Assembly: GCA_964016885.1 (NCBI GenBank)
Contig: OZ024741.1
Span: 320,044,001 to 320,108,000, forward strand
Length of the DNA: 64,000 nucleotides
Direction of reading: 5' to 3'
Origin: Eledone cirrhosa
Lineage: Eukaryota
Shown here piece by piece: positions 49,447-63,939 of this stretch (its first letter is position 1; each line of letters opens with the position of its first letter). The notes under the pieces were generated by a model. The model made no database searches and was not told the DNA's origin. It saw only the letters and a list, made by a program, of their open reading frames with translations. The translations under genes were made by a program, and so were the position numbers.

Positions 49447-49510
49447 ATTTTATTATATATATTTCAGAGGTACTGTGCTGTTTCCTCAGTACGTCCTCAT
49501 CAGATAAAAT
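49447..49510 (-). ncRNA. Type-I hammerhead ribozyme (H4; (AU)n stem III)
   Basis: Reverse strand reads attttat-CTGATGA-gga c gtactg..cagtac c tct-GAAATATATATA-ataaaat. Confidence 0.8.
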
Positions 49511-49630
49511 AAATTGATGTCTGGCATACTCCAACTGTGCTATAAATGTCTATATTTATTAATATTTTGAATTAATATATTTATATATGTATATATATAT
49601 ATATGTGTATATATATATATATATATATAA

Positions 49631-51753: not shown

Positions 51754-51841
51754 CTCTCTCTATATATATATATATACCTATATATATATATATATATATA
51801 TATAGAAAGATTTGAATGGATACAGTTTAGTTGAAAGGAAT

Positions 51842-51961
51842 TTATTGACACGTGTTTCTATAACAGTTACATAACCTAAAACAGCTGCTATCTACAAACT
51901 TTTAGTTATGCAGACATTCAATATTTCAATGTTATTATTTACTGTCATTTCATCAGAATAA
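51842..51961 (-). ncRNA. Hammerhead ribozyme with extended stem II (H5)
   Basis: Reverse complement of 55689-55808. Confidence 0.72.
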
Positions 51962-52517
51962 TATTACTGAGGACCTATTTAGTTTTTATAGAGAATATTA
52001 GGAGGGAGGGGTGAAGCTGTTAGAAGAATAGTTGAAGGAGTGGTTTTTCGATAGCAGTGAGAATTCTTGGTGGCAGTGAGTAATTAGATTCCCATCTGTT
52101 GTTTTGACATTTTTTATAGAATATATTATTGGTTATTTTTCTAAATCTATAGAAGCATTAGAGATAGTAAAGATATGCGTGGTTGGTTTTGTGTTTGCAC
52201 TTAATTAACATTCAGACTTAAATTTTTCTTTCAAGTGTACGTATCCTTTCACCCACGCATTCACAAACAAATATATTTGCACACCTCTACAAAATACATA
52301 TACTCACAATTCACATATTCATACTTACATATATATACACATGCATACACATATATATACACACATGTATTCATGTACATACATACGCGCTCATGTGTAT
52401 ACATTTTCATACTCAACTTATCTTTATATACACACGTATAGACACACACATATATACATACATACTCTAGTCCATGTGTACACACATACACATACATACA
52501 CATCCATATACACATAT

Positions 52518-52560
<43 letters not shown>

Positions 52561-53442
52561 CACTTTAATACATGAATACACTTACATCTAACTATACACA
52601 TCAAACATATATATATATATTTACTTATTTATATACATTTTCACATATATATACATACTTATGGACGTTTTTAGACACATTCATTATCGCATATTTGTAC
52701 CTATTCTCATCAGCATATCTTTCCATTATTAGTGTGGTAATTTAAGGTTATTATTATATGTTGAGAAGAGATTGTTTTTATATTTTTCTAACTAGATTAA
52801 GGTTTATATAGTTGGGGGATGTCCCTCTTTTATGTAATGTTCGGCTTGTAGTGGGAAAAAAGGGTTTTAGTTCTGTGACGGCAGAATAATGTTCGTTCAA
52901 TTCTGTTATTCAGCAGTTTCTTCTTGTGTGTGATTATGTAATAAATCTCAAGATTACACAATTTGCAGAAATTTTGGCTCCTGGAAAAGCTTTGGGTTTT
53001 AGCTAATTTTTCCCATTTTAGGGTAAACTTTTGATCGCTATCCCTGAGCGTCCAAGCTTTTTCTGCTAAAGTTGTTACATTTCTTTGGCTCTGGTGTTTT
53101 ATTGAGTAAGAATGCCTATACAATCGAGATTTAAACGATGTTGCCGTTGATCCCACGTAATACCACTCGTTGCCTCCGGATTTAATGGTACACTTATAAA
53201 TAATATTTTTTTCCAGGCAGTTATTGCCGAGGGGGCAGTTGTCAGGATAGGTGCAGTTACAGTTGTGTACGTTGGGTTTTCTCTGGAGTAGTATTGCGGA
53301 CGAACTTAGGTGTGGTTTATTTATGTTCTGTAGTGTATTGTTTACTGTTTTTTGTGTTCTTTGTACTTAAGTTCTCAGTGTTTTCGTTTAACCTTCTAGT
53401 ATTGATCTTTTTTATGTGTTGTTCAAGGTTTAACGCTGTAGA

Positions 53443-54118
53443 GTTTTTAGCTAGGAGGAGAACATCGTCGCGGTATATTCCGCCGTGGAGATTGCTGAAT
53501 TTTTCCTGGAGTCTAAAGGCGATAAATAACCCCACAATATCAGTTATTTCCGCCGAATCGTTAGAGCCCATTGTTATGTCAAAGTTAGAGGGTCTATCTT
53601 TACGTACCCAATAACTGTTCTCAAATTTGACTATAGTTTTCCTAGCTTCTAATATAATCTTAATTTCATCGTTTGTAAGGTCAGAGTTATCCTTAGCAAA
53701 CTTAATGGCTCTATTCAAAGTTTCAGGTGATATCGATGAGTAATATTCATCGATATCAAACTGGATAAACTTAGATTTATTCTTATTGCTAATGCTATTA
53801 AACCATCTTATTGCTTCTTGGGTCTTCCCCCAGAGTTTAATGTTAACCTTAGCCTTAATTTGGGGGATGATTCTATCTAAGATATATTTGCTTATTTTAC
53901 CTATATCTGATTTAGAGGGGCAGATTAATCTAATTTTAGGGTCATTATCAAAGTTTACCTTGTGGTCCTTAAGATTGAAGGTGGGTACCGCCGGTAAGAG
54001 TGGTCCTGTCCTATCTTCGATTCCGAGATTTTTCACTATTTCGCATGCCTCATCATTGATGTGCTTAAGGGTTACTTCACTCGTTTTTCTATATTTTTTA
54101 TGTAATTCTTTTTTTATG
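53443..54118 (-). pseudogene. PLE reverse transcriptase, N-terminal half
   Basis: LKDHK..F..PKIRLI.P.KS.IGKISK, QFDI, MGS, GGIYRDD. Confidence 0.88.
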
Positions 54119-54797
54119 ACATTTTCCCACATCACACAAATACCACAAAATCCTAAACCCTACCACTATAAGACTGTCATACTCTACAGCGTTAAACCTT
54201 GAACAACACATAAAAAAGATCAATACTAGAAGGTTAAACGAAAACACTGAGAACTTAAGTACAAAGAACACACAAAAAACAGTAAACAATACACTACAGA
54301 ACATAAATAAACCACACCTAAGTTCGTCCGCAATACTACTCCAGAGAAAACCCAACGTACACAACTGTAACTGCACCTATCCTGACAACTGCCCCCTCGG
54401 CAATAACTGCCTGGAAAAAAATATTATTTATAAGTGTACCATTAAATCCGGAGGCAACGAGTGGTATTACGTGGGATCAACGGCAACATCGTTTAAATCT
54501 CGATTGTATAGGCATTCTTACTCAATAAAACACCAGAGCCAAAGAAATGTAACAACTTTAGCAGAAAAAGCTTGGACGCTCAGGGATAGCGATCAAAAGT
54601 TTACCCTAAAATGGGAAAAATTAGCTAAAACCCAAAGCTTTTCCAGGAGCCAAAATTTCTGCAAATTGTGTAATCTTGAGATTTATTACATAATCACACA
54701 CAAGAAGAAACTGCTGAATAACAGAATTGAACGAACATTATTCTGCCGTCACAGAACTAAAACCCTTTTTTCCCACTACAAGCCGAACATTACATAA
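54119..54797 (+). pseudogene. PLE C-terminal GIY-YIG endonuclease fragment (inverted copy; also at 52830-53442 on minus)
   Basis: CNC..CPL..C, IIY...YVG, R..H, CKLC..E, LLN, CRH. Confidence 0.85.
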
Positions 54798-55063
54798 AAG
54801 AGGGACATCCCCCAACTATATAAACCTTAATCTAGTTAGAAAAATATAAAAACAATCTCTTCTCAACATATATTAATAACCTTAAATTACCACACTAATA
54901 ATGGAAAGATATGCTGATGAGAATAGGTACAAATATGCGATAATGAATGTGTCTAAAAACGTCCATAAGTATGTATATATATGTGAAAATGTATATAAAT
55001 AAGTAAATATATATATATGTTTGATGTGTATAGTTAGATGTAGTGTATTCATGTATTAAAGTG

Positions 55064-55132
<69 letters not shown>

Positions 55133-55688
55133 ATATGTGTATATGGATGTGTATGTATGTGTATGTGTGTACACATGGACTAGAGTATGTATGTATATAT
55201 GTGTGTGTCTATACGTGTGTATATAAAGATAAGTTGAGTATGAAAATGTATACGCATGCGCGCGTATGTATGTACATGAATACATATGTGTATATATATG
55301 TTTATGCATGTGTATATATATGTAAGTATGAATATGTGAATTGTGAGTATATGTATTTTGTAGAGGTGTGCAAATATATTTGTTTGTGAATGCGTGGGTG
55401 AAAGGATACGTACACTTGAAAGAAAAATTTAAGTCTGAATGTTAATTAAGTGCAAACACAAAACCAACCACGCATATCTTTACTATCTCTAATCCTTCTA
55501 TAGATTTAGAAAAATAACCAATAATATATTCTATAAAAAATGTCAAAACAACAGATGGGAATCTAATTACTCACTGCCACCAAGAATTCTCACTGCTATC
55601 GAAAAACCACTCCTTCAACTATTCTTCTAACAACTTCACCCCTCCCTCCTAATATTCTCTATAAAAACTAAATAGGTCCTCAGTAATA

Positions 55689-55808
55689 TTATTCTGATGA
55701 AATGACAGTAAATAATAACATTGAAATATTGAATGTCTGCATAACTAAAAGTTTGTAGATAGCAGCTGTTTTAGGTTATGTAACTGTTATAGAAACACGT
55801 GTCAATAA
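55689..55808 (+). ncRNA. Hammerhead ribozyme with extended stem II (H5)
   Basis: ttatt-CTGATGA-a-atgacagt...actgttat-a-GAAACACGTGTC-aataa. Confidence 0.75.
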
Positions 55809-55978
55809 ATTCCTTTCAACTAAACTGTATCCATTCAAATCTTTCTATTTTTCTCCGGATTACTTTTGGAACTACAACTGGAACCGTCGAGCAAACTCTA
55901 CGTGAGCTGATAATCTACTGTGTGTAATATTTATATTACAACACAACGGAAAATACTGTATATATATATATATATGTA

Positions 55979-56068
<90 letters not shown>

Positions 56069-56205: not shown

Positions 56206-56316
56206 ATATATATATATATATATAGGTATGTACGTTATTCCGGGTTGAATCGGGGGTAACCACAGTAAGTAAGGTACTCAATACATAGCAGAGTATAAAA
56301 GTTTTAATATAGATGA

Positions 56317-56365
56317 GATTCTACAGGACTAGAACTGTTTCATTCATTAGAAATCATCAGGAATC
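56317..56365 (-). ncRNA. Type-I hammerhead ribozyme (H6)
   Basis: Reverse strand reads gattc-CTGATGA-tttctaatgaat-GAA-ACAG ttctagtc CTGT-A-gaatc; stem II is weak. Confidence 0.65.
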
Positions 56366-56416
56366 AGAGATTATATATATATATACCTATATATCAGAGA
56401 TATATATATATATATA

Positions 56417-56451
<35 letters not shown>

Positions 56452-56474
56452 ATATATATATATATATATATATA

Positions 56475-56550
<76 letters not shown>

Positions 56551-56554
<4 letters not shown>

Positions 56555-56860
56555 TATACACTGAGGATGAAAAACTCAGAGCTGTATGGGAGCATCCCAA
56601 AAGTCAGCTCAAAAGTGACACAGAGGAGACTGAGGTTAGCTGGACATGCTCACCGACTTCCAGAGTTGACATTGCACTCAGTACTCCTTAGGGAGCCCCT
56701 ACATGGACACACTAGAAGAGGAAGACCAAGGTTAACGTATGTTGATGCCCTAATGACAGACACTGGTTTGTTGGAGATGCAGGACATGGCAGCGATAATG
56801 AGGGACAGAGACCGCTGGAGAGAACTCGTCCATGGATCTCGGGAATTTTACCTGCCTTAG
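56551..56860 (+). mobile_element. RTE-clade LINE 3' fragment
   Basis: [11 protein letters not shown]...RGRPRLTY..; closely similar to 59506-59815. Confidence 0.85.
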
Positions 56861-58292: not shown

Positions 58293-58339
<47 letters not shown>

Positions 58340-58354
58340 TTAATAATCTCAGGG

Positions 58355-58402
58355 GATTCCTGATGATTTCTAAAGAATGAAACAGTTCTAGTCCTGTAGA
58401 AT
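58355..58402 (+). ncRNA. Type-I hammerhead ribozyme (H6)
   Basis: attc-CTGATGA-tttctaaagaat-GAA-ACAG ttctagtc CTGT-A-gaat; lies in a ~135-bp inverted copy of 56233-56365. Confidence 0.65.
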
Positions 58403-58657
58403 ATCATCTATATTAAAACTTTACTCTGCTATGTATTGAGTACCTTACTTACTGTGGTTATCTCCGATTCAACCCGGAATAACTTACCTATTTTTTTATT
58501 TTTTATTTTTTAATATATGTTGGTTGTTTTCCAACACCTCAGTATGCAGATTGGATCACTCGACGAAGTACGCAGGTTGGTTTGTGTACTCCGGAGTAAT
58601 ATAAAATAAAGTAATTAAGTCAAATATTTAAGATTTGGCTTCGTTTATTAAAGATAT

Positions 58658-58712
58658 ACTGCTATATATATTTCGGTGACAGCCATCATTGGCTGTGACC
58701 TCTTCAGGCAGT
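58658..58712 (-). ncRNA. Type-I hammerhead ribozyme (H4)
   Basis: Reverse strand reads actgc-CTGAAGA-ggt c acagcca atga tggctgt c acc-GAAATATATATA-gcagt. Confidence 0.85.
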
Positions 58713-58764
58713 TCGAATTGGTGTGGTAGAGTTCCTCAGAGAAATAACAACCCAACCAGGAGCT

Positions 58765-59820
58765 GGACATGTAAGATCTTCATCAGGCAGTGACGGCCCA
58801 CAGAATCAAAGGCCTTCCTAAAGTCAATGAAAACTATGACCGCAGGAAGGCACTTTGCTCTAGCTCCCTCTAATATCCTCCCTAGCACCAGGATGTGACT
58901 GGTTGTTGATCTTCCTTCTCTGAAGCCGTTCTGGTTGTCCCTGAGCTTCTTCTCCATCTCAGGCTGGATCCTGTTAAGGATAATCCTGTTGACGGTCTTT
59001 ACCACGTGACGGCTCAGAGCAGGAGAGTTAAGGCGAAACAGATATCGGATGCTGAATTTGCCGACGACATAATTTTGGTGACAAATACAGTGAAGGAGGC
59101 AAAGGATTTGATGCAGGAGGTTGAGACTGTGTCGATGAGTGTGGGGCTGAGAATGAATGAGACTGAAACAAAATATCTTGTAGAGAATGTTGAGAAGCCA
59201 GAGGGGATCACTAATGTAGGCGGGAAGCCACTAGAATTGGTTGAGGGCTTCCTGTATTTGGGAGCAAAGATTGGGAATGCGGAAGATGATGTGGTTGAAA
59301 GGAAGAGCAAGGTCTGGGCGGCGTGCCACAGCTTGAGATCGGTGTGGAAATCGGACCTTCGTAAAGACCTGAAAATCCGCCTCTTCATTGCTGTAGTGGA
59401 GTCTGTGCTGCTGTACGGGTCTGAGACTTGGACACTGACCAAGAAACTCACTCAGATGGTGGATTGGTGCTACGCGAGAATACTGAGGATGGCTCTGAAC
59501 ATTAATCAGTATACACTGAGGATGAAAAACTCAGAGCTGTACGAGAGCCTACCAAAAGTCAGCTCAAAAGTGACACAGAGGAGACTGAGGTTAGCTGGAT
59601 ATGCTCACCAACATCCAGAGTTGACACTGCACTCAGTGCTCCTGTGGGAGCCCCTACATGGACACACTGGAAGAGGAAGACCAAGGTTAACATATGTTGA
59701 TACCCTAAGGACAGACACTGGTCTGTTGGAGATGCAGGACATGGCAGCGATAATGAAGGATAGAGACCGCTGGAGAGAACTCGTCGATGGATCTCGGGAA
59801 TTTTACCCGCCCTAAAAAAA
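58765..59820 (+). mobile_element. RTE-clade LINE with 5' inversion
   Basis: 58765-59005 encodes QNGFR..RST..FIDFRKAFDSV on minus; 59006-59815 encodes FADDI, FLYLG, LLYGSETW, RGRP on plus. Confidence 0.88.
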
Positions 59821-59991
59821 ATACATATATATATATATATACAGTTTTTTCCGTTGTGTTGTAATATAAATATTACACACAGTAGATTATCAGCTCACGT
59901 AGAGTTTGCTCGACGGTTCCAGTTGTAGTTCCAAAAGTAATCCGGAGAAAAATAGAAAGATTTGAATGGATACAGTTTAGTTGAAAGGAAT

Positions 59992-60108
59992 TTATTGACA
60001 CGTGTTTCTATAACAGTTACATAACCTAAAACAGCTATCTACAAACTTTTAGTTATGCAGACATTCAATATTTCAATGTTATTGTTTACTGTCATTTCAT
60101 CAGAATAA
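59992..60108 (-). ncRNA. Hammerhead ribozyme with extended stem II (H5)
   Basis: Copy in the inverted arm of element B. Confidence 0.72.
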
Positions 60109-60692
60109 TATTACTGAGGACCTATTTAGTTTTTATAGAGAATATTAGGAGGAAGGGGTGAAGTTGTTAGAAGAATAGTTGAAGGAGTGGTTTTTCGATA
60201 GCAGTGAGAATTCTTGGTGGCAGTGATTAATTAGATTCCCATCTGTTGTTTTGACATTTTTTATAGAATATATTATTGGTTATTTTTCTAAATCTATAGA
60301 AGGATTAGAGATAGTAAAGATATGCGTGGTTGGTTTTGTGTTTGCACTTAACATTCAGACTTAAATTTTTCTTTCAAGTGTACGTATTCTTTCACCCACG
60401 CATTCACACACAAATATATTTGCACACCTCTACAAAATACATATACTCACAATTCACATATTCATACTTACATATATATACACATGCATACACATATATA
60501 TACACACTTGTATTCATGTACATACATACGCGCTCATGTGTATACATTTTCATACTCAACTTATCTTTATATATACACACGTATAGACACACACATATAT
60601 ACATACATACTCTAGTCCATGTGTACACACATACATACACATCCATATACACATACATACATACACATATATATATACATATATACATATAC

Positions 60693-60723
<31 letters not shown>

Positions 60724-60746
60724 CACATACATATATACACACATAT

Positions 60747-60777
<31 letters not shown>

Positions 60778-61360
60778 AGCACTTTAATACATGAATACAC
60801 TTACATCTAACTATACACATCAAACATATATATATATTTACTTATTTATATACATTTTCACATATATATACATACTTATGGACGTTTTTAGACACATTCA
60901 TTATCGCATATTTGTACCTATTCTCATCAGCATATCTTTTTATTATTAGTATGGTAATTTAAGGTTATTAATATATGTTGAAAAGAGATTGTTTTTATAT
61001 TTTTCTAACTAGATTAAGGTTTATATAGTTGGGGGATGTCCCTCTTTTATGTAATATTCGGCTTGTAGTGGGAAAAAAGGGTTTTAGTTCTGTGACGGCA
61101 GAATAATGTTCGTTCAATTCTGTTATTCAGCAGTTTCTTCTTGTGTGTGATTATGTAATAAATCTCAAGATTACACAATTTGCAGAAATTTTGGCTCCTG
61201 GAAAAGCTTTGGGTTTTAGCTAATTTTTCCCATTTTAGGGTAAACTTTTGATTGCTATCCCTGAGCGTCCAAGCTTTCTCTGCTAAAGTTGTTACATTTC
61301 TTTGGCTCTGGTGTTTTATTGAGTAAGAATGCCTATACAATCGAGATTTAAACGATGTTG

Positions 61361-62783
61361 CAAATTTGAGAACAGTTATTGGGTACGTAAAGATAGACCC
61401 TCTAACTTTGACATAACAATGGGCTCTAACGATTCGGCGGAAATAACTGATATTGTGGGGTTATTTATCGCCTTTAGACTCCAGGAAAAATTCAGCAATC
61501 TCCACGGCGGAATATACCGCGACGATGTTCTCCTCCTAGCTAAAAACCTTAATAACCAAAAACTAGAAAAACTACGCAAAGATATAAGAAAACTACTACT
61601 CGAAATAGGACTAACTATAACATATGAATACAACCTTAAAGTAGTTAACTTCCTGGATGTCACACTCAATTTAAACTCTGGTTTGATTAAACCGTTTCAT
61701 AAATTGAATGAAAATCTCAAATACGTAAATGTTGGGTCTAACCACCCCATCTCTATAATTAAATCTATCCCTAAAAATATTTCCCTTAGAATCTCGGGTC
61801 TATCTTCTAACATACAAGTATTTAAGGAACACGCCGAGTACTACGATAACGCCCTTAGTAAAGCAGGCTACCTCAACAAAATAGAGTACATAGATGGGAA
61901 CAATCAAAACACCCAAAATAAATCCCACATAGGTAGATATAATAACACAACACCAAACCACACTTACTACCATAGTATGCACACCAGTAAACCAACAAAC
62001 AAAACTAATAGAAAGCGATGCAAAGAGTACTTATGGTATAACCCCGAATACAATAGCTCCATTAGTACAAATTTACCAGTACTCTTCTTTAAAATAATTA
62101 AAAGACATTTTCCCACATCACACAAATACCACAAAATCCTAAACCCTACCACTATAAGACTGTCATACTCTACAGCGTTAAACCTTGAACAACACATAAA
62201 AAAGATCAATACTAGAAGGTTAAACGAAAACACTAAGAACTTAAGTACAAAGAACCCCAAAAAAACAGTAGACAATACACTACAGAACATAAATAAACCA
62301 CACCTAAGTTCGTCCGCAATACTACTCCAGAGAAAACCCAACGTACACAACTGTAACTGCACCTATCCTGACAACTGCCCCCTCGGCAATAACTGCCTGG
62401 AAAAAAATATTATTTATAAGTGTACCATTAAATCCGGAGGCAACGAGTGGTATTACGTGGGATCAACGGCAACATCGTTTAAATCTCGATTGTATAGGCA
62501 TTCTTACTCAATAAAACACCAGAGCCAAAGAAATGTAACAACTTTAGCAGAGAAAGCTTGGACGCTCAGGGATAGCAATCAAAAGTTTACCCTAAAATGG
62601 GAAAAATTAGCTAAAACCCAAAGCTTTTCCAGGAGCCAAAATTTCTGCAAATTGTGTAATCTTGAGATTTATTACATAATCACACACAAGAAGAAACTGC
62701 TGAATAACAGAATTGAACGAACATTATTCTGCCGTCACAGAACTAAAACCCTTTTTTCCCACTACAAGCCGAATATTACATAA
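61361..62783 (+). CDS. PLE RT C-terminal half + Cys-rich linker + GIY-YIG endonuclease (open frame, 5'-truncated)
   Basis: MGS, YRDD, FLDV, SNHP, WYNP.Y, CNC..CPL..C, IIY..YVG, CKLC, CRH; no internal stops. Confidence 0.9.
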
Positions 62784-63052
62784 AAGAGGGACATCCCCCA
62801 ACTATATAAACCTTAATCTAGTTAGAAAAATATAAAAACAATCTCTTTTCAACATATATTAATAACCTTAAATTACCATACTAATAATGAAAAGATATGC
62901 TGATGAGAATAGGTACAAATATGCGATAATGAATGTGTCTAAAAACGTCCATAAGTATGTATATATATGTGAAAATGTATATAAATAAGTAAATATATAT
63001 ATATGTTTGATGTGTATAGTTAGATGTAAGTGTATTCATGTATTAAAGTGCT

Positions 63053-63085
<33 letters not shown>

Positions 63086-63102
63086 ATATGTGTGTATATA
63101 TG

Positions 63103-63135
<33 letters not shown>

Positions 63136-63729
63136 ATGTATATGTATATATGTATATATATATGTGTATGTATGTATGTGTATATGGATGTGTATGTATG
63201 TGTATGTGTGTACACATGGACTAGAGTATGTATGTATATATGTGTGTGTCTATACGTGTGTATATATAAAGATAAGTTGAGTATGAAAATGTATACACAT
63301 GAGCGCGTATGTATGTACATGAATACAAGTGTGTATATATATGTGTATGCATGTGTGTATATATATGTAAGTATGAATATGTGAATTGTGAGTATATGTA
63401 TTTTGTAGAGGTGTGCAAATATATTTGTGTGTGAATGCGTGGGTGAAAGAATACGTACACTTGAAAGAAAAATTTAAGTCTGAATGTTAAGTGCAAACAC
63501 AAAACCAACCACGCATATCTTTACTATCTCTAATCCTTCTATAGATTTAGAAAAATAACCAATAATATATTCTATAAAAAATGTCAAAACAACAGATGGG
63601 AATCTAATTAATCACTGCCACCAAGAATTCTCACTGCTATCGAAAAACCACTCCTTCAACTATTCTTCTAACAACTTCACCCCTTCCTCCTAATATTCTC
63701 TATAAAAACTAAATAGGTCCTCAGTAATA

Positions 63730-63846
63730 TTATTCTGATGAAATGACAGTAAACAATAACATTGAAATATTGAATGTCTGCATAACTAAAAGTTTGTAGA
63801 TAGCTGTTTTAGGTTATGTAACTGTTATAGAAACACGTGTCAATAA
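63730..63846 (+). ncRNA. Hammerhead ribozyme with extended stem II (H5)
   Basis: Same as 55689-55808, with a 3-nt deletion in a stem II loop. Confidence 0.75.
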
Positions 63847-63880
63847 ATTCCTTTCAACTAAACTGTATCCATTCAAATCT

Positions 63881-63939
<59 letters not shown>

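Follow-up and report, generated by a model that had tools for sequence, protein, structure and literature searches.

In the window, by which the whole analyzed stretch of 64,000 nt is meant, two halves of a hammerhead core lie 91 nt apart, which raises the question of whether they form one ribozyme and what the sequence between them is for. The first half, CTGATGA (C3 to A9, CUGAUGA in the RNA), occupies 55694-55700 (+) and the second, GAAACACGTGTC, 55792-55803 (+); the latter comprises G12-A14, the palindromic stem III (55795-55802) and C17, and a cut is predicted after 55803. All bases of the core consensus C3UGANGA9, G12AA14, A15.1-U16.1 and H17 are in place (among pattern matches, core bases are invariant by construction). 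Three helices surround this core: an open stem I of 5 bp (55689-55693, + strand, with 55804-55808), for which compensatory changes occur in related long-arm motifs, a stem II with a basal helix of 8 bp (55702-55709 with 55783-55790), and stem III, ACACGTGT, which is a perfect palindrome. The 91 nt between the core halves (55701-55791, +) form the stem II arm. A preliminary description had read the locus as an enlarged type-I hammerhead motif of a Penelope-like element (PLE) with palindromic stem III, and this reading of core and stems was confirmed. The four copies it had claimed are likewise all present, two per strand, at 51956-51847 (-), 55694-55803 (+), 60103-59997 (-) and 63735-63841 (+). 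With their stem I strands, the first of these (51842-51961, -) belongs to an inverted partner and is identical to the 55689 copy, the third (59992-60108, -) has an 88-nt arm and is followed by a tail, and the fourth (63730-63846, +) has an 88-nt arm in an insertion that ends at +45.

The window copies lack a G-C pair at positions 10.1/11.1 and carry an A.A mismatch there (55701/55791), which the preliminary description had left out. G-C is the optimal pair at these positions of a hammerhead, and because of the A.A mismatch the ribozyme predicted for young copies of the host family (family A) may cut poorly. Old A subfamilies have A-U at 10.1/11.1, and an older group of long-armed motifs, described below, has A.A in 27 of 50 arms. 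Published hammerheads of Hydra-clade PLEs are often mismatched at 10.1/11.1, so that the pair is not defining for this subclass. As in dimeric PLE hammerheads, a perfect 8-nt palindromic stem III is combined with tandem copies; their minimal size is not shared, as stem II measures 88-92 nt. In the youngest and commonest A subfamilies the A10.1-U11.1 pair and two basal pairs have been lost and a donor-like GT context has been gained, and in one of these subfamilies 3 nt of the arm are also deleted.

A chance pairing of two core halves was considered and rejected, since matches lie far above the reversed-pattern control. With a spacer of 70-100 nt, the family A pattern gave 2,742 exact matches in the element's own 3.0-Gb genome, and the reversed control gave none. 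A general pattern was matched 52,719 times with a stem II of 8-33 nt (control 78), 5,451 times with 39-68 nt (control 106) and 387 times with 69-87 nt (control 3), lengths of 34-38 nt falling outside these counts; with young A copies left out, 978 matches of 69-98 nt were obtained (control 41). Little or no excess over the control was seen in this genome for arms above ~96 nt (598 vs 497) or for arms of 69-98 nt with a stem III starting with T (387 vs 361). Stem II length thus forms a continuum from ~20 to 92 nt, of which family A is the upper end. Altogether the genome holds more than 60,000 PLE-type hammerhead motifs of many families, a lower bound from one narrow pattern; a C.C mismatch at the fourth stem II pair is common to the short-armed families, and for families with a stem II of 40-62 nt no tie to a Hydra ORF was found.

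That size-limited searches would miss such a motif had been anticipated, and this proved right. Rfam hammerhead models gave no match at the gathering score in the window and none at E<=10 over the motif. At E<=1 they also missed short- and mid-arm PLE motifs in seven control loci, so this subclass lies outside the reach of the models. The core spacers given for the search of Craig et al. (2021, PMC8557442), 7-17 nt and 35-50 nt at most, are too short for the arm described here. Descriptor searches thereby undercount hammerheads: in this genome, a single narrow pattern returned ~52,700 motifs with short, 5,450 with medium and >3,000 with long arms, and PLEs reported with only a "half core" may hold long-armed ribozymes of this kind.

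The element that hosts the hammerhead is an active Hydra-clade PLE, family A, with thousands of near-identical copies and many intact ORFs in the genome. Full-length copies outside the window form tandem units of ~3.6 kb and encode, in a single ORF, a 773-aa protein with an RT followed by a C-terminal GIY-YIG domain. This protein has RWK, DKT, a CxCX5C linker, and CxxC and CxH around the GIY-YIG, and is without CCHH, which are the protein features listed for the Hydra clade (PMC8557442). The insertion habits of this clade are present as well, namely (TA)n targets, partial tandems, inverted 5'-truncated partners and a tail; the clade assignment is based on the motif list and on these habits, the trees having taken in unnamed homologues only. 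Within the window there are two insertions, A (51802-55979) and B (59821-63888), each a head-to-head (inverted) pair of copies that are truncated at the 5' end and lie in (TA)n. Insertion B retains an RT-thumb-GIY-YIG frame (61323-62783, +), and a Pfam scan of the PLE fragments within the window yielded no match. A cephalopod protein is one of the homologues matched and, with the repeat landscape, points to a probable cephalopod host. The motif had been assigned to the 3' UTR, which is correct and at the same time incomplete: in tandem copies the predicted cut precedes the ATG by 210 nt, and the motif is therefore part of the 3' UTR and of the 5' pseudo-LTR alike.

Two further families were compared with family A. 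Family B, a second active family with 41% protein identity to A, has a hammerhead with the same core in the same place, a 36-nt stem II and a stem I of 8 bp; its palindrome differs from that of A. Family J is a tandem Hydra element with the same core in the same place and a 90-nt arm of different sequence; its protein is 63% identical to that of A over residues 1-482, and J is sister to A in the tree (A+J 99/97). Sequencing contigs from eight runs contain near-identical copies of the element. In two of these runs, X2 and X5, labelled as two other organisms, the element is nearly identical and has a high summed contig depth, which may reflect close relatives or a recent transfer; the X5 copy has changes at 55690 and 55742 and one base added after 55746.

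How the arm folds is a point on which the preliminary description was not upheld. It had drawn two extra hairpins on stem II, a branched fold of -15.9 kcal/mol as drawn and -19.2 kcal/mol at best. Both the MFE and the centroid structure of the 91-nt insert are one unbranched rod of -26.8 kcal/mol, and the 18 branch pairs have a probability of about 0. The folding z-score of the family A arm is -4.46 and that of its antisense strand -0.50; rod z-scores are -3.60 for old A and -3.61 and -2.47 for J, whose 90-nt arm folds as the same kind of rod. Differences between insertions A and B had been said to fall in unpaired or loop positions. For the 3-nt deletion (one of two) this holds under the branched model only, in which it lies in a loop; in the rod, paired bases are lost. 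The covariation of stems across genomic copies that had been suggested as a check is found for the rod and for stems I and III in the older group, while family A alone does not separate the two folds, as its 12 variants are 97.4% paired in the rod and 95.2% in the branched model and the folds are indistinguishable by this measure. That the branched fold exists, alone or as a switch state, is scarcely credible to us: its helices can be drawn, they stay paired across the A variants, where U-A or C-G pairs have in some cases become U-G, and a model of it weakly matched two older arms, but it lies 7.6 kcal/mol above the rod, and the rod is the fold obtained for J and for the older group as well. 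A rod model built from family A matched four of five J arms in register, with weak E-values of 1.5-2.1, and the branched model matched none of the five; the rod model is unspecific, ordinary inverted repeats outscoring the J arms. We thus describe the arm as one unbranched imperfect rod, as thermodynamic modelling predicts.

The arms of A and J are homologous. Their alignment score of 58 compares with 26 +/- 6.8 for shuffled sequences and was reached in 0 of 1000 shuffles, and they are more alike than five of six equal stretches of flanking sequence (z 3.7-3.8 vs -0.6 to 1.6), the exception being the 60 nt before the ATG with a z of 3.9. By eye, the A and J folds show several double-sided changes in a structure-guided register. 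Among 120 candidate arms, 52 that belong to neither A nor J scored above 15 bits and 14 were unassigned; alignment A3 contains 50 of these older arms of 75-87 nt, the two omitted being a near-duplicate and a copy with a deletion, and alignment A4 contains 45. The alignment of the 50 arms took only their sequences into account; along the rod, 82% of cells are paired, and 172 cells carry double-sided changes, compared with 75.5 +/- 7.0 after shuffling and at most 49 in slid alignments; the group amounts to 12-21 effective sequences, and relatedness inflates the covariation. Compensatory changes also occur in stem I, as does a change from U-A to C-G at the centre of the palindrome. Singly, the older arms fold weakly (median z -0.7, below -2 in 6/50), APC-corrected mutual information in these arms did not single out the rod pairs and was dominated by family structure, and consensus folding of both alignments gave no structure by default alifold and the rod by RIBOSUM scoring alone.

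A PLE protein remnant lies upstream of 7 of the 52 older motifs, and in trees that took in unnamed homologues only these seven remnants place the group among Hydra-like elements. The trees neither favour nor contradict a single origin of the long arms, with values of 64/75 for the RT and 52/79 for the endonuclease. Neither A nor J arms were detected by a profile built from the sequences of the older arms. A structure model trained on these older arms and no others placed the A arms of the window and one J arm in exact register, with weak E-values of 9.4 and 7.1, and did not match old-A copies. A common ancestry of the older group and the arms of A and J is thus weakly indicated. The rare changes in the A arms show no A-to-G excess (6 A>G vs 8 T>C).

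The same small asymmetric internal loop, 5'-A-N-U-3' opposite 5'-A-G-3', occurs twice per arm in A, in J and in the older group. At the locus under study, the first consists of A55720-N55721-U55722 opposite A55773-G55774 (55720-55774, +) and the second of A55732-N55733-U55734 opposite A55761-G55762 (55732-55762, +). The two are spaced by 12 nt in A, 11 nt in J and 10 nt in the older group, about one helical turn. With a descriptor that was defined after the data had been seen, the double loop was found in every tested arm of A (4) and J (2); among the 50 older arms, 12 have it where 0.24 would be expected. Fold-keeping shuffles gave p-values of 0.005-0.035 per family. None of the 47 motifs whose stem II measures 20-52 nt contains the double loop, and of the 14 motifs with 56-62 nt, 7 show one match. 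The N of loop 2 ranks with the most variable positions in family A, while the A of that loop is fixed.

The conservation of these loops bears on the view that the hammerhead is real and its long arm a tolerated expansion, with the loops being inherited leftovers or breaks that avoid long perfect dsRNA. The length continuum of stem II, the abundance of short-armed families, which are the most numerous, and the young A subfamilies that have lost arm pairs would all fit such an expansion. In the older group, however, the eight loop-defining columns (A, U, A and G of both loops) are conserved at 0.90, the N positions at 0.55, the covarying helix between the loops at 0.61 and the whole arm at 0.64, and the loops are kept between families whose RTs are only ~50-66% identical, which makes a mere expansion rather unlikely. 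The loops might otherwise dock RNA, that is stem I, the tail or a partner hammerhead, and thereby replace the loop I/loop II contact and speed up protein-free cleavage. Conserved asymmetric A.G-type loops such as those of the arm are typical receptors, and minimal PLE hammerheads are without the usual tertiary contact (PMC6155905). But the distance of the loops from the core, ~20 and 32 nt, far exceeds that of the canonical contact, and a covarying partner sequence was not found; we regard RNA docking as distinctly unlikely. What the loops are likely to dock, judging from the modelled arm, is a protein: they are sequence-specific, they lie on one helical face, and the helix around them is otherwise conserved in its pairing only. 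The preliminary description had proposed an RT-binding or tertiary-contact module for the insert; the repeated loop would suit binding, although sister Hydra families with stems of 26-36 nt do without it.

The arm also contains sequences that resemble splice signals, and an intron of the pseudo-LTR could end inside it, so that splicing would either leave a compact stem II of 24 nt or take away the 5' half-core, and would thereby switch the ribozyme. In family A, a donor-like GT stands at arm position 8 and the AG at position 73-75 is preceded by a pyrimidine run; a branch-like CTAAT is also present, for which one J subfamily has TACTAAC. The Penelope intron of D. virilis is reported to end at helix I (PMC4209133). 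Against this stand the predicted junction, which is present in none of the genomic copies (the sole shortened copy carries an unrelated deletion), the donor GT, which is weak in old A copies and missing from J, the older arms, which are without branch point and pyrimidine tract, and an internal intron of only ~67 nt. A role of the arm in splicing is therefore very improbable.

The ends of genomic insertions show in which state the RNA is copied. Insertion 3' ends fall at two sharp sites, +45 (30/82) and +163 (48/82), both downstream of the cut; at the locus, the 3' strand of stem I and a spacer lead to the first (55804-55848, +), and a tail of ~115 nt leads to the second at +155 to +163 (55849-55966, +), after which (TA)n follows. 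None of the 17 5' truncation points between -514 and +211 lies at the predicted cut, and 34 of 43 alignments spanning the ATG retain the whole upstream hammerhead, overlapping loci included. As copies end at +45 or +163 and none starts at the cut, the copied templates are uncut at the predicted site. The tails between the two 3' ends (window 55849-55966 and loci L051, L096 and L141) measure 87-147 nt, compared with 30-40 nt reported for PLEs. Some 75-110 nt after the cut, they have in common a short motif with GAG, a candidate site for RT binding. This motif is common to long- and short-armed families and is also present in a published coral Hydra element, and as a candidate based on sequence it would make a better general RT site than the arm.

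In our main reading, to which we give a probability of just under one half (about 0.48), the locus holds a type-I hammerhead motif whose 91-nt unbranched arm with twin loops likely docks a protein and likely helps to control slow, dimer-dependent self-cleavage. In the monomer the junction is not the MFE structure (-23.1 vs -26.9 kcal/mol for the arm alone). Two palindromic stems III form an 8-bp duplex with a predicted -10.3 kcal/mol, and this pairing would close the core, in line with the dimer mechanism described for PLE hammerheads (PMC4209133; PMC6765202). The four copies in the window point away from each other, so that they could dimerise in trans only; read-through of a tandem would give a transcript in which hammerheads separated by 3.6 kb pair and are cut after C17, and the RNA that gets reverse-transcribed would be uncut and primed at +45 or +163. 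A protein would attach to the twin loops, the simplest candidate being the RT-endonuclease that the element itself encodes, and once bound it could set the timing of core folding.

A precedent is found in the Poseidon PAc element of Anolis, whose hammerhead was reported to cleave only with protein added and whose uncut RNA served as template in vitro (Frangieh et al., 2024, PMC11167929). Since the templates are uncut here too and Poseidon cleavage depends on protein, we take the putative ribozyme to act slowly and conditionally, with the arm as the likely docking surface for protein. Poseidon likewise has two reverse-transcription starts downstream of the hammerhead that bound a tail, and no read end was described at its cut site. 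It belongs to another clade, however, its tail is 30-40 nt long vs ~115 nt here, and its ORF starts inside stem II, whereas the ATG lies 210 nt downstream in family A (PMC11167929). The protein site reported for Poseidon is downstream of the hammerhead, which counts against docking on the arm (PMC11167929). Moreover, short-armed Hydra families without the loops are far more numerous, and the putative docking arm is therefore not needed for transposition in general. Going further, stem II may have been turned, in one Hydra-clade lineage, into a conserved protein-docking arm of 75-92 nt, whose loops on one face would bind a dimeric RT-endonuclease and couple cleavage to RNP assembly; we offer this as a tentative extension that is somewhat doubtful. 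If true, it would represent a natural protein-gated hammerhead and a hidden ribozyme size class that current descriptors miss in many invertebrate genomes.

PLE hammerheads as such are already known, and it is the long-armed stem II that appears to be new. The Hydra hammerheads of Craig et al. (2021, PMC8557442) are of the same type I, lie near the 3' end in the pseudo-LTR, have a palindromic stem III and a frequent 10.1/11.1 mismatch, and belong to elements with (TA)n targets and the same protein motifs. In the 26 Hydra rows of their table, loop 2 is 3-10 nt and stem II up to ~26 nt, compared with 88-92 nt here and 75-90 nt in the sister families; the longest entry, PLE-X1_sMoe, is non-Hydra, has ~54 nt and is marked as deviating (PMC8557442). 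The metazoan PLE hammerheads of Cervera and de la Pena (2014, PMC4209133) share a short stem I, a larger-than-usual helix II, an extra nucleotide after A9, a palindromic helix III, a predicted dimer and a low expected activity. Their helix II, however, is described as 6-8 bp with a conserved G10.1-C11.1, in contrast to the interrupted rod of ~33 bp with A.A or A-U and two conserved loops found here (PMC4209133). In the discontinuous mammalian Clec2 hammerhead, a large insertion likewise separates the core halves, and compact descriptors fail to find the motif; it is a ribozyme of a host-gene 3' UTR with an insertion of several hundred nt (PMC6765202), whereas the insert studied here is a conserved, covarying stem II of a retroelement. 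The journal literature on PLE hammerheads that was compared does not report long stem II arms, and a prior description elsewhere is possible. Among the matches listed in a metagenome scan, 0/117 were PLE-linked long hammerheads, and viral contigs contained no relative, so that all evidence comes from one genome. Why PLEs keep a barely cutting hammerhead is an open question in the field, and an active long-armed family next to short-armed sisters offers a ready-made comparison for protein-assisted cleavage.

Further hammerheads and repeats were observed in the vicinity and at other loci. At window 49454-49503 (-), (TA)n flanks the end-piece of a hammerhead with a short arm of 31 nt, together with its tail, and part of a second degenerate end is found just upstream of it (~49500-49580). 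At 58663-58707 (-), beside a LINE fragment, there is a further core with a CUGAAGA variant, a 26-nt stem II and a palindromic stem III. Weak Rfam matches at L092:241-285 (-) (Hammerhead_1, E 0.0007) and L083:47-117 (+) (HH9, E 0.0002) apparently represent a separate repeat family of compact hammerheads. RTE-like LINE fragments with weak RVT_1 and DUF6451 matches occupy 58736-59815, of which ~58736-58910 is inverted, and 56550-56860. An inverted repeat of ~200 nt with (TA)n ends, present at 56227-56434 and 58297-58490, is probably the end of another (TA)n-targeting element. Finally, locus L104 contains an intronless frame of 261 aa (229-1011, -), which presumably resembles a BAP31-type membrane protein and is possibly a retrocopy.
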